A stretch of 64,000 bases of DNA from the sequence record HQ630627.1. The stretch is one strand, 5' to 3'. Below are positions 20,656 through 35,545 of this stretch, piece after piece (within the stretch, counting starts at the first letter, position 1; each line of letters begins with the position of its first letter). This stretch comes from Pseudomonas phage PhiPA3. The notes under the pieces are model-generated. The model was not told the DNA's origin. It saw only the letters and a program-made list of their open reading frames with translations, and did not search any database. Both the position numbers and the translations under genes were made by a program.

Positions 20656-20719
20656 TAATGGATAAAAGGTATCGTTCCTACCTTTATATTCTGACCTAAC
20701 AACCAAAGGTACCAACGTG

Positions 20720-21088
20720 ATGCAATGTTTTACACACGTAACGCGACTTCTGGTTGTAGCGGCCCTTGTGGTACTGCCGTTGCAAGCAAAGTCAGCTGAG
20801 GTGGTTGATACGGATGGGATTTGTCATATGACTGCCCTCCTGGATCAGGCTACTGCCGAAGCACGGGATCGAGGTGATACCGTGAATCAGCAGCAGGGCG
20901 CCCTCCTCGCCCTTCAAAAAGGGTACGGCGTGAAGAACAAAGATAACGTTCTTTACAGCGTCTTACCGAAAGCGATACAAGAAGTCCGTAGTGTCTATCA
21001 GAAGCGACAGCCTCCGAAAGAAGCTTATGTGACTGCTTATAACGCCTGTATGTCAGACCGTTTCAACCGGATGGTTGCAGCGCAGTAG
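20720..21088 (+). CDS. secreted/periplasmic protein with signal peptide (122 aa)
   Basis: MQCFTHVTRLLVVAALVVLPLQAKSAEV: hydrophobic h-region plus an A-x-A-like cleavage site. Confidence 0.5.
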   Translation: MQCFTHVTRLLVVAALVVLPLQAKSAEVVDTDGICHMTALLDQATAEARDRGDTVNQQQGALLALQKGYGVKNKDNVLYSVLPKAIQEVRSVYQKRQPPKEAYVTAYNACMSDRFNRMVAAQ

Positions 21089-21097
21089 TATCATACT

Positions 21098-21123
21098 GCC
21101 TCCCTGCGGGGAGGCTTTATGTC
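21098..21123 (+). terminator. rho-independent terminator
   Basis: gcctccc-tgcg-gggaggc + tttatgtc. Confidence 0.65.
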
Positions 21124-21228
21124 ATCTTAGAGAAAAGTTACCCTCCATTGAAATAACATGCACGCGTAGCAAGGAACAAGCTTTCGGCCATTCGTTCGAA
21201 GCTGGGCTGGATGTAAGCGGTATAAAGC

Positions 21229-21267
21229 GGGAGCCTTCGGGCTCCCTGCTTTTCCTTTTCTTTTTTG
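21229..21267 (+). terminator. rho-independent terminator (UUCG) with a long U-tract
   Basis: gggagcc-ttcg-ggctccc + tgcttttccttttcttttttg. Confidence 0.7.
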
Positions 21268-21268
21268 C

Positions 21269-21304
21269 CATTAAATTTTATTTCAAATCTATATTACGTC
21301 TTTG
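21269..21304 (+). promoter_or_regulatory. conserved promoter-like box (copy 2, identical to copy 1)
   Basis: cattaaattttatttcaaatctatattacgtctttg; 39 nt upstream of ATG 21336. Confidence 0.55.
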
Positions 21305-21335
21305 CTGAACCAACACTCAATCATTAGGGGTAATC

Positions 21336-22124
21336 ATGATCACGCTTAAAAAGTCGCTGACCCAGTGCACGCTGGATAGCTGGTATACCTTCATGGCTGA
21401 GAACAGCCTGTCTCGTTTTGATTGTCTGATTGATATTGGCTATCTGGATGAACCACTGCGTAAGATTCTGGAGAAGCACCCGATGTACCGTGGGGATGGT
21501 ACCATTCTCCTGAACCTGTCTGTGAATGCCTGTAAGCACATTAACTACAGAGGCGATGCATTTACCGGTGAGATCGGTCTTCAGGGTCGTCCGACTTCCC
21601 TGTATATCCCGTACCATGCGTTCGTTTCATTGCAGATTCCGCTGTCGGAAACGGCTACAGTAGAAGCCAGTTTCCCGATCTACGACCGACTGGTATTCGA
21701 TGCTCAGAACCCCACCTTCGTACACCCGTACGCTGAAGCTGGGCAACAATCGCTCCTCACTATTGCTCCTGAAGCTGTAGTGAAGTGGATGCACAATGAA
21801 GGCCACACTGAGTGTAATGTCCACAACGTCGGTGAGTTCATTAAGTACGTATGGCCTAATGGTGTACCGATGGAAGTCCAAGAATATTTGGTCGAAGAAA
21901 CCGCCAATATGCTCCGCGACCATCAAATGGCTGTACTGCAAAAGCAGTCTGCACAAGCTCCGGTTCCTTCGAATGACGATCGTATCCCGTTTGAAGAAGC
22001 TGAAATCAAACCCCTGCTGGAATTCCCTGATCTCTCGGCCAATAAAGTTGTTCTGCAACAGCCGGTGGCGTCGAAGTTCAAAGGCAAGCCAACCCTGACT
22101 CTGATTAAAGGAGGTAAGAAGTGA
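21336..22124 (+). CDS. SspB-like protein (candidate ClpXP specificity-enhancing adaptor)
   Basis: DGTILLNLSVNAC..INYRGDAFTGEIGLQGRPTSLYIPYHAFVSLQ parallels E. coli SspB DGQIVLNIAPRAV..LELANDEVRFNARFGGIPRQVSVPLAAVLAIY; C-terminal ..TLTLIKGGKK resembles the SspB ClpX-binding tail LRVVK. Confidence 0.5.
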   Translation: MITLKKSLTQCTLDSWYTFMAENSLSRFDCLIDIGYLDEPLRKILEKHPMYRGDGTILLNLSVNACKHINYRGDAFTGEIGLQGRPTSLYIPYHAFVSLQIPLSETATVEASFPIYDRLVFDAQNPTFVHPYAEAGQQSLLTIAPEAVVKWMHNEGHTECNVHNVGEFIKYVWPNGVPMEVQEYLVEETANMLRDHQMAVLQKQSAQAPVPSNDDRIPFEEAEIKPLLEFPDLSANKVVLQQPVASKFKGKPTLTLIKGGKK

Positions 22125-22390
22125 GTGCTTCTGTCGTTGTAGGTCTTCCGACTGTTCTGCTTAGTACCATTCTCACTGCTGGGGTACAAGGTCCTGCGGG
22201 TAATAGTCAACTGGCCCAGGACTTCGAGTCTAAGGAAGCTTGCTGGCAAGCAATAGGTGCAATTCAACAAGCAACAGGTACCAATGGCGTAAAAGTACAC
22301 CAGATCGAACAAGGTGTTGTCCTTGAATATAGTTTTGAGGGCAAGAACATCCGTCGTGAAATGGTTTGTGTTAGCAAGCACAAACAGTGA
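22121..22390 (+). CDS. small secreted/membrane protein (89 aa), GTG start
   Basis: RBS aaaggagg; N-terminal hydrophobic VVVGLPTVLLSTILTAGV. Confidence 0.4.
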   Translation: MSASVVVGLPTVLLSTILTAGVQGPAGNSQLAQDFESKEACWQAIGAIQQATGTNGVKVHQIEQGVVLEYSFEGKNIRREMVCVSKHKQ

Positions 22391-22448: not shown

Positions 22449-23201
22449 ATGAACCGACACAATTCCGAGGAAGTTCGCCAACTGATCGCCGATACGGCTG
22501 TGCAACTGGATACGCTGATGGAGAGTAATCACCTCAATGGCATCCGTTTCACTTTCGTGGCACCCAGTGAGGAGACCTTCAACGAACTGTCCAAGATCAT
22601 TCATGAAGTTGAAAACCTGGGTCACACCATGCGTGTGCTGCGTGGGTCTCTCCATGACTTCAAAGAAATCATGGACGCTCAAGACTTTATCGTCACCGCT
22701 GGTAACAGTTACGGACACATGACTGGTGGTCTGGATGGTGCTCTGGCTGATATCTATCCTGATCTGATCAAACGCGTTCCATCTACCATTGCTCTTAAGT
22801 GTCATGGCGAGCTCAATGTGGGTGATGGTGTACTGGTGCATCGACATATCCAAGAACCCATCTACGAGAAGATCGTGTACAAGGATCAATACCTGGTTTA
22901 CGTGCCGACCATGCGTACTCCACGTCGGTTGGCAAAAGGTAGTGATGTACCTTATCTGGCTACCCACAAGGCCCTGAGTCTGATTCGCCAAGGCCTGATC
23001 CAACATCCTACCTTCCGTAATGTGTTCATGACCCTCATGGGTACTGGCACTGGTAACATTCCCGTGAAGGTAGCAGTCGAGCAATTCCTGCTGGCTCTTC
23101 GGAAAGCTACTCGGATTGTCAATGTTAAGAAGCTGTTCGATGATGGTAAAGACGTCGACCATGAACTGGTTAACATTTGGAAAAGGTATGGCAATGAGTA
23201 A
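22449..23201 (+). CDS. macro-domain protein (ADP-ribose binding/hydrolase family)
   Basis: AQDFIVTAGNSYGHMTGGLDGALAD matches the macro-domain signature ([21 protein letters not shown]). Confidence 0.55.
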   Translation: MNRHNSEEVRQLIADTAVQLDTLMESNHLNGIRFTFVAPSEETFNELSKIIHEVENLGHTMRVLRGSLHDFKEIMDAQDFIVTAGNSYGHMTGGLDGALADIYPDLIKRVPSTIALKCHGELNVGDGVLVHRHIQEPIYEKIVYKDQYLVYVPTMRTPRRLAKGSDVPYLATHKALSLIRQGLIQHPTFRNVFMTLMGTGTGNIPVKVAVEQFLLALRKATRIVNVKKLFDDGKDVDHELVNIWKRYGNE

Positions 23202-23846: not shown

Positions 23847-25277
23847 ATGCACGCTTATCTCCAGCTGTTGGAAGACATCAAGAAATACGGTGTCTTCAAA
23901 GGAGATCGAACCGGGACTGGTACTCAGTCCCTTTTCGGTCGTCAGTTCCGTTTTGATCTGAAAGACAACAACCTGCCGGTTGTGACCACCAAGTTCGTTC
24001 ATACCCCGTCGGTTGAAGTCGAACACGTCTGGATGAAGAACGGTCTCACTAACCTGAAGTTCCTGCTCGATCACAACGTGCGGATCTGGAACGAATGGTG
24101 CAAGCCGGGTACTGAAGTGCGCGTACCGGTGGACGAAGGTGAGCTGGTTGATCTGGTTCAACGCAAGTTCAAGTACGTTGACTTCGAAATGCACCACAGC
24201 AATGAAATCGAAGAAGACTACAAGTTCATCCTAGATGGTGCTCGTACCAACGGCGAGAAAGGTGCGGTACTGCTGATGAGTGGTAAAGCCTGGATGGATG
24301 TCGAGCGTTTCGGCCCAGGCCCCACTACTTACGACTTCTATGGTCATGCTCGTCGAGTCTGGCAAATCGTCTGCGGAGAAACTACTACCCTTAAAGTAGG
24401 GGAAGACGGCTTTGTTTACCGTCTCGTAGATGGTGATCTGGGTCCGGTGTATGGTAAGACCTGGCGTAATATCGAGGACACTCGGATCATCAAGAAGGCT
24501 GAACTCCAGAACTTCTTGGATCGTAAGTTCACATTCGTGGTGGATGTACCGGGTACATCTCTGGAAACCGATCGAGCTGTAGTTACCCGTAATATCGATC
24601 AACTGGCTGAACTGCTCCATGACCTGGAACACAATCCGGATTCGCGGCGTCTGATCATCTGTGCCTGGGACCCGGCTCTGGTTGATGAACAGGCATTGCC
24701 TCCGTGCCACGCATTTATTCAGTTCTGGACTCGTAAGCTGGAACTGTCCGAACGTCTGAGTCTGTGGGTTTCCAATAATGCCAATGAATTCATCAAGCAT
24801 CTGTTGGATTATAAGGGGGATTGGCCGACTCAAAACGTTATTGACATCGTCAACACTGGCGAATACCAACAAGTCATTACTCAGGTAGCCGAAAGTGATT
24901 GGCTGAAGTTTGTAGAAGCATCGGGTATTGATCTGACTGGTATTCCTGAACGAGGCATTAGTTGCCAACTCTACCAGCGATCAGTTGACGCATTCCTTGG
25001 TTTGCCCTTTAACATCACCTTCTACTCGATCATGACTCATGCACTGGCCAACCAGTTCAACATGGTTGCAGAAGAGTTCATCTGGACTGGGGGTGATTGC
25101 CACATTTATTCCAACCACCAAGAACAGACTGATCTACAACTGACTCGGAATACGTTCCCGACTCCGAAGATTCATTTCCGTGAGAAAGGTAAACCGTATC
25201 TGGAACTGGACGTAGGTGATTTCGTGATCGAAGGTTATGAGTATCACCCACACATTGCTGGCAAGGTAGCCGTCTAA
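23847..25277 (+). CDS. thyA: thymidylate synthase family enzyme (ThyA-like, dUMP-type active site) with three large insertions (476 aa)
   Basis: DRTGTGT, LPVVTTK, DLGPVYGKTWR, NPDSRRLIICAW, PCHAFIQF (catalytic Cys), RSVDAFLGLPFNI and GGDCHIYSNH all conserved; about 95-, 30- and 65-aa insertions relative to the 264-aa E. coli ThyA. Confidence 0.8.
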   Translation: MHAYLQLLEDIKKYGVFKGDRTGTGTQSLFGRQFRFDLKDNNLPVVTTKFVHTPSVEVEHVWMKNGLTNLKFLLDHNVRIWNEWCKPGTEVRVPVDEGELVDLVQRKFKYVDFEMHHSNEIEEDYKFILDGARTNGEKGAVLLMSGKAWMDVERFGPGPTTYDFYGHARRVWQIVCGETTTLKVGEDGFVYRLVDGDLGPVYGKTWRNIEDTRIIKKAELQNFLDRKFTFVVDVPGTSLETDRAVVTRNIDQLAELLHDLEHNPDSRRLIICAWDPALVDEQALPPCHAFIQFWTRKLELSERLSLWVSNNANEFIKHLLDYKGDWPTQNVIDIVNTGEYQQVITQVAESDWLKFVEASGIDLTGIPERGISCQLYQRSVDAFLGLPFNITFYSIMTHALANQFNMVAEEFIWTGGDCHIYSNHQEQTDLQLTRNTFPTPKIHFREKGKPYLELDVGDFVIEGYEYHPHIAGKVAV

Positions 25278-35519: not shown

Positions 35520-35545
35520 AAAGAATTTCAAGGCTATATTACAAC
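35520..35545 (+). promoter_or_regulatory. conserved promoter-like box (copy 3, tttcaaggc-TATATTAC-a)
   Basis: Follows a terminator; 45 nt before ATG 35587. Confidence 0.5.

Follow-up and report, generated by a model that had tools for sequence, protein, structure and literature searches.

Bacterial SspB proteins, including that of Pseudomonas aeruginosa (PF04386; structures 1OU8, 1OU9, 1OX9 and 8ET3), are built from a folded domain, a flexible linker that is short, acidic and variable, and a short C-terminal motif, XB, which tethers them to ClpX and with whose lysine they end. Phage-encoded homologs are present in RAY (gp039, 150 amino acids (aa), ending in ...KKPTLTVVK) and pf16 (gp18, 128 aa, ending in ...KKPTLRVVK); both are short, have tails of the KKPTL(T/R)VVK type that also stop at the XB lysine, and keep the (Y/M)ARE loop. 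The jumbo-phage ClpS adaptors (Iyer et al. 2021, PMC7824862) are likewise phage copies of a host AAA+ protease adaptor and have been proposed to bring targets to it, but ClpS is a different adaptor family, of unrelated fold and pertinent to ClpAP, whereas the SspB family is pertinent to ClpXP. The subject here is a gene of Pseudomonas phage PhiPA3 within a stretch of 64,000 nucleotides (nt) from sequence record HQ630627.1 (the whole of this stretch is termed the window, and positions are counted from its first letter). The product of the gene, gp268, alias ‘Uncharacterized protein 270’, has an N-terminal domain homologous to that of bacterial SspB and with the same fold.

The plan of gp268 is also that of its bacterial counterparts, folded domain, flexible linker and short ClpX-tethering motif, but its linker is of ~125 aa with predicted helices and a PLL(D/E)F motif, and four residues, GGKK, have been added beyond the XB lysine. 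The same domain, long linker and XB plus GGK tail are found in phiKZ gp232 and in the corresponding proteins of PA1C-like phages, RVTF4, Psa21, D6 and Phabio. SspB-like putative ClpXP adaptors of jumbo phages are a kind of protein already to be found in the literature and in some GenBank records (RAY, pf16, RVTF4 and some phiKZ-like phages), and since such genes had been noticed in these related phages the novelty is lower than was implied by a preliminary description of the gene made from the DNA sequence. For the XB-GGK tail, the PLLDF module and the altered surface considered below, no earlier description was found in the literature. The gene and the parts of its product are as follows.

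21336..22124, + strand: SspB-like coding sequence, 262 aa plus stop codon, from the open reading frame call; PhiPA3 gp268
21357..21710, + strand: SspB-type substrate-binding domain, aa ~8-125, an N-terminal helix then a beta-barrel-like domain, from homology and fold
21711..22007, + strand: long linker, aa ~126-224, with low-confidence helices at aa 131-206
22008..22028, + strand: linear motif KPLLEFP (clade consensus KPLLDFG), ~25 aa N-terminal to the tail
22086..22109, + strand: putative XB-like ClpX N-domain tethering motif KPTLTLIK, aa 251-258, aligned with bacterial SspB C-termini
22110..22121, + strand: clade-specific extension GGKK, aa 259-262, C-terminal to the XB motif

A very divergent SspB domain

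The product of the open reading frame is 100% identical to ‘hypothetical protein AVT69_gp268’, its N-terminus is in register with those of its orthologs on alignment, and it ends in ...KGKPTLTLIKGGKK. Searched as a single sequence, it matches Pfam PF04386 with an expectation value (E) of 0.061 and 13.8 bits (gathering score 27 bits) and the PHROG family ‘SspB-like’ with E 0.014; the six best chains in a PDB search are all SspB (best E 0.017), and the four NCBIfam models for ‘ClpXP specificity-enhancing factor’ give it 13-16 bits against cut-offs of 135-202. Since these scores are under the curated cut-offs (27 bits for Pfam gathering, 135-319 bits for NCBIfam equivalogs), gp268 is an SspB homolog and not a curated equivalog. 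None of the clade members tested reaches the NCBIfam equivalog cut-off either; pf16 gp18 alone does so.

Profiles bring out the relationship. One constructed from four phage orthologs matches only SspB chains in the PDB, with E values ranging from 1.5e-8 (Haemophilus influenzae 1OU9) to 7e-5 (Escherichia coli 8ET3) and 1OX9 included. In an aligned set of 23 sequences from a profile search, 20 of them members of the phage clade and three bacterial SspBs, 22 are recognized by Pfam SspB at E <= 0.01, the sole exception being PhiPA3 gp268 itself, and precomputed Pfam SspB matches exist for nine of its phage-clade relatives. When two profiles, one made solely from 28 phage sequences and the other solely from bacterial SspBs (E. 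coli, four from Pseudomonas and three more), were aligned by hhalign, the probability was 99.3% and E was 4.4e-20, PhiPA3 residues 11-100 being in register with residues 12-94 of E. coli SspB. The segment-by-segment alignment with E. coli SspB claimed in the preliminary description is, on the four-ortholog and hhalign E values, real and far past chance.

Finding the relatives of so divergent a protein depended on the method used. A word-indexed homolog search with the single gp268 protein returned only the self-match, and megablast of the region against a set of phage genomes that does not include PhiPA3 gave short patches only. Relatives were recovered by tblastn, by an exhaustive HMMER search and by profile search, the last two adding ~25 further clade members, many of them on contigs of ~300 kilobases. 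PADLOC gave no match for gp268 or for the neighbouring proteins.

The predicted structure points the same way. AlphaFold2 modelled gp268 with a predicted local distance difference test (pLDDT) score of ~90 over residues 10-130, a helix at 8-22 being followed by strands; in this helix (SspB homodimers form through the N-terminal helix) positions of the A16/W20 type are partly conserved. When the model was compared with the PDB by Foldseek, the top 19 matches were all of the SspB family (H. influenzae, E. coli, Caulobacter and Agrobacterium AGR_C_3712), the best with E 1.5e-6, and the target template-modelling (TM) scores for the H. influenzae and E. coli chains were 0.67-0.76. As three bacterial SspBs had been included in the alignment from which this first model was built, the prediction was repeated with 20 phage-only sequences; again the top 19 Foldseek matches were all SspB family, with TM scores up to 0.76 (0.65-0.76 for the two models taken together). 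Structure prediction, the check that the preliminary description had put forward, thus recovered in both AlphaFold2 models the SspB fold and not an unrelated one. The Foldseek alignments put gp268 at 16-24% identity with the bacterial SspB chains of known structure. Against viral models, Foldseek detected SspB-fold proteins in PA7, Psa21, Phabio, Noxifer and 201phi2-1, and further ones in Erwinia phages Rebecca and PhiEaH1, Aeromonas phage phiA8-29 and Vibrio phage VAP7. Residues ~8-125 of gp268 are a true, if very divergent, SspB substrate-binding domain.

The tail, the linker and the altered surface

At the other end of the protein, K251-K258 fits the pattern [KR]-P-x-L-x-[LV]-[IV]-K at every position, and when the whole window is translated in six frames the pattern of the tail occurs nowhere else. 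Bacterial SspB C-termini in the alignment include ...GGKPTLTLVK and ...SRPHLTLIK; all the Pseudomonas SspBs retrieved end in ...GRPSLKVVK, and E. coli SspB in ...GGRPALRVVK (checked against 8ET3 chain Y). P. aeruginosa SspB binds ClpX via R128-K135 (RPSLKVVK), alanine substitutions there taking the dissociation constant from 27 to 179 nM (2026 study, PMC13251409). It is with these eight residues of Pseudomonas SspB that the gp268 motif aligns, so that the match is better than the mere resemblance to a ClpX-tethering tail to which attention had been drawn initially. In a family with identity of ~20-25%, the best-conserved columns include P252, L254, I257, G259, G260 and K261.

The last three of these belong to the added residues. 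In every one of the 28 clade members compared, the XB motif runs straight on into GG[KR], which is absent from bacterial SspB, RAY gp039 and pf16 gp18. The internal position that it imposes on XB need not block binding to ClpX, since the ClpX zinc-binding domain accepts internal RssB peptides of the LKxh type (PMC7226468).

The linker is far longer than that of bacterial SspB and of a kind common to the PA1C-like phages and phiKZ gp232; in PhiPA3, PA1C and phiKZ helices are predicted within it at low confidence. It bears the PLL(D/E)F motif, PLLEF in gp268, of which P226, L227, L228 and F230 do not vary across 20 aligned sequences. PLLEF has a single occurrence in the six-frame translation of the window, and the motif is lacking from phiKZ gp232 and Phabio, from RAY and pf16, and from all bacterial SspBs compared. 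Compared with beta-clamp-binding motifs, the ClpP-docking IGF motif and the C-terminal peptide of FtsZ, PLLDF resembled none of them convincingly.

About half of the ~39 positions that are invariant in bacterial SspBs have been replaced in the phage clade, and the replacements are unevenly spread. Structural-core residues W20, L53, N54, A59, F72, G78 and P86 are retained in at least 80% of clade members, and the bacterial strand motif GQIVLN...A persists as G-x-I-[VL]-L-N-L-S-x-N-A. R15, E19, N67, R75 and the loop Y94-A95-x-E97-N98-G99 are retained in no more than 14%. The iLID mutations R73Q and A58V of SspB, markers of the ssrA interface, do not enter this comparison, as their numbering could be mapped only with ambiguity. 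In SspB, high conservation is limited to the dimer interface and the ssrA groove (Ghanbarpour et al., bioRxiv 10.1101/2022.11.06.515074), and R91/E92 of host SspB, which are within the YARENG loop lost by the clade, have been modelled as the contact to AlgU (PMC13251409). Because most of the surface residues invariant in bacterial SspBs have been replaced, the cargo of the clade probably differs from the set handled by host SspB, i.e. ssrA-tagged proteins and the MucA/RseA anti-sigma fragment.

Phage relatives, early promoter and neighbouring genes

Orthologs of gp268 have been kept, in frame and syntenic, in at least six phage lineages. Among those found by tblastn, identity is 39% for PA1C-like phages and 24% for RVTF4, whose protein is annotated in GenBank as ‘stringent starvation protein B’; more widely, gp268 is 39-41% identical to PA1C-like proteins and 19-30% to most other clade members, and in sequence terms it is the most divergent copy of the clade. 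The syntenic ortholog in phiKZ is PHIKZ232 (302 aa, with the tail ...GTPKLTVIKGGKK), located between PHIKZ229 and the thymidylate synthase gene and detected directly by E. coli SspB (tblastn E 4e-7). PhiPA3 gp268 and phiKZ gp232 can both be named ‘SspB-like ClpXP adaptor (putative)’ in place of ‘hypothetical’.

Such experimental information as bears on these proteins comes from orthologs. phiKZ gp232 is enriched in a preparation of the shell of the phage nucleus and absent from virions, and its mNeonGreen fusion is diffuse outside the phage nucleus (PMC10449902); the SspB-like gp039 of RAY, a nucleus-forming jumbo phage, is cytoplasmic (PMC10299810). The accessible part of the supplements to the phiKZ co-fractionation work lists both gp232 and ClpX, and no pairing of the two could be extracted from it. 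PHIKZ232 is within the orf184-304 region, deemed host-interacting by the authors who studied it (PMC12676376), and as it tolerates transposon insertions (22 and 43 sites; PMC12676376 supplements) it is dispensable in strain PAO1 in the laboratory. A literature search found no paper connecting PhiPA3 or phiKZ with ClpX.

The features that flank the gene are these.

21229..21265, + strand: intrinsic-terminator-like hairpin GGGAGCC-TTCG-GGCTCCC (21229-21246) plus T-rich run, from a terminator scan; closes the upstream transcription unit
21268..21297, + strand: phiKZ-type early (virion RNA polymerase) promoter, CCATTAAATTTTATTTCAAATC then the core TATATTAC at 21290-21297
21326..21330, + strand: ribosome-binding site AGGGG, 5 nt 5' of the ATG, from the sequence
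22121..22390, + strand: downstream 89-aa open reading frame (phrog_32080), whose GTG start overlaps the SspB-like stop codon (GTGA)

The promoter core TATATTAC has six copies in the window where 1.2 are expected, all on the + strand. Each of the six is within one extended AT-rich motif with the upstream element TAAA...TTTCAARxC, and each has a ribosome-binding site and ATG 25-45 nt downstream. An identical module of ~35 nt, CCATTAAATTTTATTTCAAATCTATATTACGTCTTTG, is common to the cores at 2538 and 21290 (within 2504-2551 and 21256-21303), the remaining cores being at 35535, 38318, 39172 and 45341. Ahead of gp268, TTTCAAATC-TATATTAC terminates 38 nt upstream of the ATG, which fits the spacing of ~30-45 nt expected for phiKZ-type early genes. 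In the literature TATATTAC is given as the core of phiKZ promoters, and for 201phi2-1 the form is TTTRARR-x-TATATTAC (PMC7058600); phiKZ early promoters are AT-rich elements read by the virion RNA polymerase that is injected (PMC8244752). The core also precedes the ortholog in Phabio, by 39 nt, and the 230.2-231-232 operon in phiKZ, and orthologs in the Pseudomonas chimallivirus clade are, like gp268, syntenic upstream of the thymidylate synthase gene and in early transcription units. With its six-copy enrichment, extended motif and published consensus, what had initially been referred to simply as a promoter box before the gene is a genuine phiKZ-type early promoter, and gp268 is the first gene of a predicted early transcription unit.

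In the 247-nt gap 5' of the gene, ~115 nt are flanked by two terminator-like hairpins, at 21098-21115 and 21229-21246, and the RNA folding of the stretch 21089-21265 is unusually stable (z = -4.0). An Rfam scan of the gap found no family above threshold; its structure could be that of a tandem terminator or of a small transcript.

Pfam and PHROG scans of the neighbouring genes revealed no functional partner, the matches being to unknown families and to thymidylate synthase only. The 89-aa open reading frame is probably co-transcribed with the SspB-like gene and may be translationally coupled to it, given the overlap of its GTG with the preceding stop codon; its N-terminus is hydrophobic, phrog_32080 is a family of unknown function, and the placement downstream of the SspB-like gene is the same in PA1C and HPP-Temi. 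Next comes a 250-aa open reading frame (22449-23201; phrog_2613, with a weak match to the ‘tail protein’ family phrog_14717), a counterpart of which, of similar size, is downstream of the SspB-like gene in PA1C, RVTF4 and phiKZ (PHIKZ233). The ‘tail protein’ label that its homologs bear in some records looks doubtful, since the gene is in an early-promoter region. The thymidylate synthase homolog (23847-25277, 476 aa) has a split Pfam match in which residues 3-305 span only profile positions 2-162, pointing to an insertion of ~140 aa that the orthologs of phiKZ and PA1C, long as well, have in common with it. On the other side, the 123-aa open reading frame at 20717-21088 is a PHIKZ229 homolog (phrog_16193) with a signal-peptide-like N-terminus. 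Over 41 nt it matches phiKZ-like genomes with 100% identity, in surroundings too diverged for megablast (patches at 20684-20803 and 20917-20972).

A candidate adaptor of host ClpXP and its alternatives

How might such a protein serve the phage? As the short tail for docking on ClpX has been kept, the phage probably either reprogrammes host proteolysis or obstructs it. To the proposal that gp268 is an SspB-family adaptor with altered cargo, made early by the phage and acting in the cytoplasm on host ClpXP, we would give about an even chance. The homology, fold, tail motif, promoter and orthology on which it draws were computed here, the localization and dispensability are borrowed from orthologs, and ClpX binding, delivery and the change of cargo are what we infer. 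The injected virion RNA polymerase would transcribe the gene straight after infection from its phiKZ-type early promoter, and the product, kept out of the phage nucleus, would remain in the cytoplasm with ClpXP. There, KPTLTLIK would dock on the zinc-binding N-domain of ClpX as the XB tail of bacterial SspB does, and the SspB-fold domain on its long flexible linker would keep peptide cargo near the ClpX pore, so lowering the Michaelis constant (KM) for degradation of that cargo. Occupancy of ClpX N-domains would in turn put gp268 in competition with any other adaptor or substrate that depends on these domains, host SspB included; SspB or its isolated tail peptide is known to inhibit RssB-dependent ClpXP degradation competitively (PMC7226468).

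Rather less likely is the further idea that the remodelled surface selects new cargo while a bipartite element, PLLDFG, a spacer of ~25 aa and XB-GGK, grips ClpX more tightly than host adaptors do. If this were so, the phage would both re-target and monopolize host ClpXP. Such a cargo might be a protein of host defence, stress response or regulation, or one of the phage's own that has to be removed on schedule.

Several considerations weigh against an adaptor with altered cargo. The presence of GGKK or its equivalent after XB in every clade member could mean that binding to the N-domain is altered or abolished, or that the partner is a different one. PhiPA3 differs from its own clade at F72 (Gly78) and Q50 (Thr56). 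The case for a change of cargo is made from sequence conservation alone, and the SspB of Caulobacter has a very divergent domain that still binds the ssrA tag. No experimental test of any phage SspB-like protein was found in the literature search, and the phiKZ co-fractionation paper, which has gp232 in shell-associated fractions, mentions no link to ClpX (PMC10449902).

Perhaps gp268 is an orthodox SspB that adds to the delivery of ssrA-tagged ribosome-rescue products to ClpXP, with the benefit that truncated proteins resulting from host mRNA decay are cleared, their amino acids recycled and tagged proteins diverted from ClpAP. Its homology to SspB is genuine, both parts of the SspB architecture are present and the core strand motif has been kept, pf16 gp18 is so nearly identical to bacterial SspB in motif content that some phages evidently do carry orthodox SspBs, and transfer-messenger RNA (tmRNA) persists in phage infections (PMC13478754). 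However, the bacterial invariants that have been lost, about half of the total, include R15, E19, N67, R75 and the YARENG loop when it is the dimer interface and ssrA groove that are conserved in SspB (bioRxiv 10.1101/2022.11.06.515074); the host has its own SspB; and the long linker with its conserved motifs is without a match in ssrA-delivering SspBs. Orthodox delivery is accordingly unlikely in our view. A different possibility is that gp268 is chiefly a decoy or inhibitor that saturates ClpX N-domains, possibly with high avidity through the XB tail and PLLDF module acting together. Its effect would be to block adaptors and substrates of the host that depend on the N-domain, such as SspB cargo, RssB/RpoS and antitoxins, thereby protecting phage proteins or averting protease-triggered abortive infection, and the SspB fold would be mainly a dimerization scaffold or a means of tag sequestration. 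Phage inhibitors of host AAA+ proteases have precedents in T4 PinA and T7 gp4.5, which act on Lon, and lambda RexB, which acts on ClpP-dependent antitoxin turnover. The competitive inhibition by SspB and its tail peptide cited above speaks for a decoy, as do the early expression predicted from the promoter and the stronger conservation of the tail and PLLDF than of most of the domain surface. Yet even phages that have diverged very far keep the folded domain, in which Y71, F76, P92 and P114 are invariants specific to the clade, and a conserved ligand is therefore favoured over a simple scaffold; on balance, we do not expect gp268 to be a decoy.

The two remaining explanations dispense with ClpXP altogether. 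That the domain and basic tail have been repurposed for an unrelated process, for instance at the phage nuclear shell or another early structure, with the likeness to XB an ancestral relic, has on its side that co-fractionation placed phiKZ gp232 with the shell and that it was enriched in the shell preparation (PMC10449902), that GGK(K) and PLLDF are without a known role in ClpX binding, and that gp268 is far under the curated equivalog cut-offs. We consider it very unlikely, since in a family at ~20-25% identity a relic would not persist as one of the best-conserved segments, tagged gp232 fluoresced diffusely through the cytoplasm and did not mark the shell (PMC10449902), and the RAY and pf16 relatives retain a canonical C-terminal XB. 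As for chance resemblance, or the absence of any real gene, the probability is vanishingly small: all single-sequence scores are indeed under the curated thresholds, but the orthologs in at least six lineages, in frame and syntenic, the strong evidence at both profile and fold level, and the promoter, ribosome-binding site and terminator rule it out.

The adaptor proposal, if true, may have a connection to the activation of the AlgU regulon in phiKZ infection. In phiKZ-infected PAO1 an AlgU (sigma-E-like) motif is present at 78 of the 423 infection-specific host transcription start sites (PMC8244752). Host SspB bridges the MucA-AlgU complex to ClpXP (PMC13251409), and, speculatively, a phage SspB-like protein could perturb the MucA-AlgU axis in either direction. 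That the phage protein would deliver MucA-AlgU in the way that host SspB does is unlikely, as the clade is without the R91/E92 loop modelled as the AlgU contact.

The identification of gp268 as an SspB homolog is solid and useful for annotation, but the biology would be notable only on demonstration of a new cargo or of an inhibitory role. In the former case gp268 would be the first viral protein shown to act as an adaptor of a bacterial AAA+ protease with a substrate specificity of its own, and either finding may offer a portable degradation or stabilization tool for Pseudomonas. Regulated proteolysis by ClpXP in Pseudomonas governs stress sigma factors, antitoxins and quality control, and a phage protein in the adaptor dock of ClpX would, if it is there, be a compact way of rewiring those pathways within the first minutes of infection. 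The SspB-like family is widespread in nucleus-forming jumbo phages, which are under development for P. aeruginosa therapy, and the identity of its cargo, or proof of inhibition, would expose a host pathway that these phages must control.

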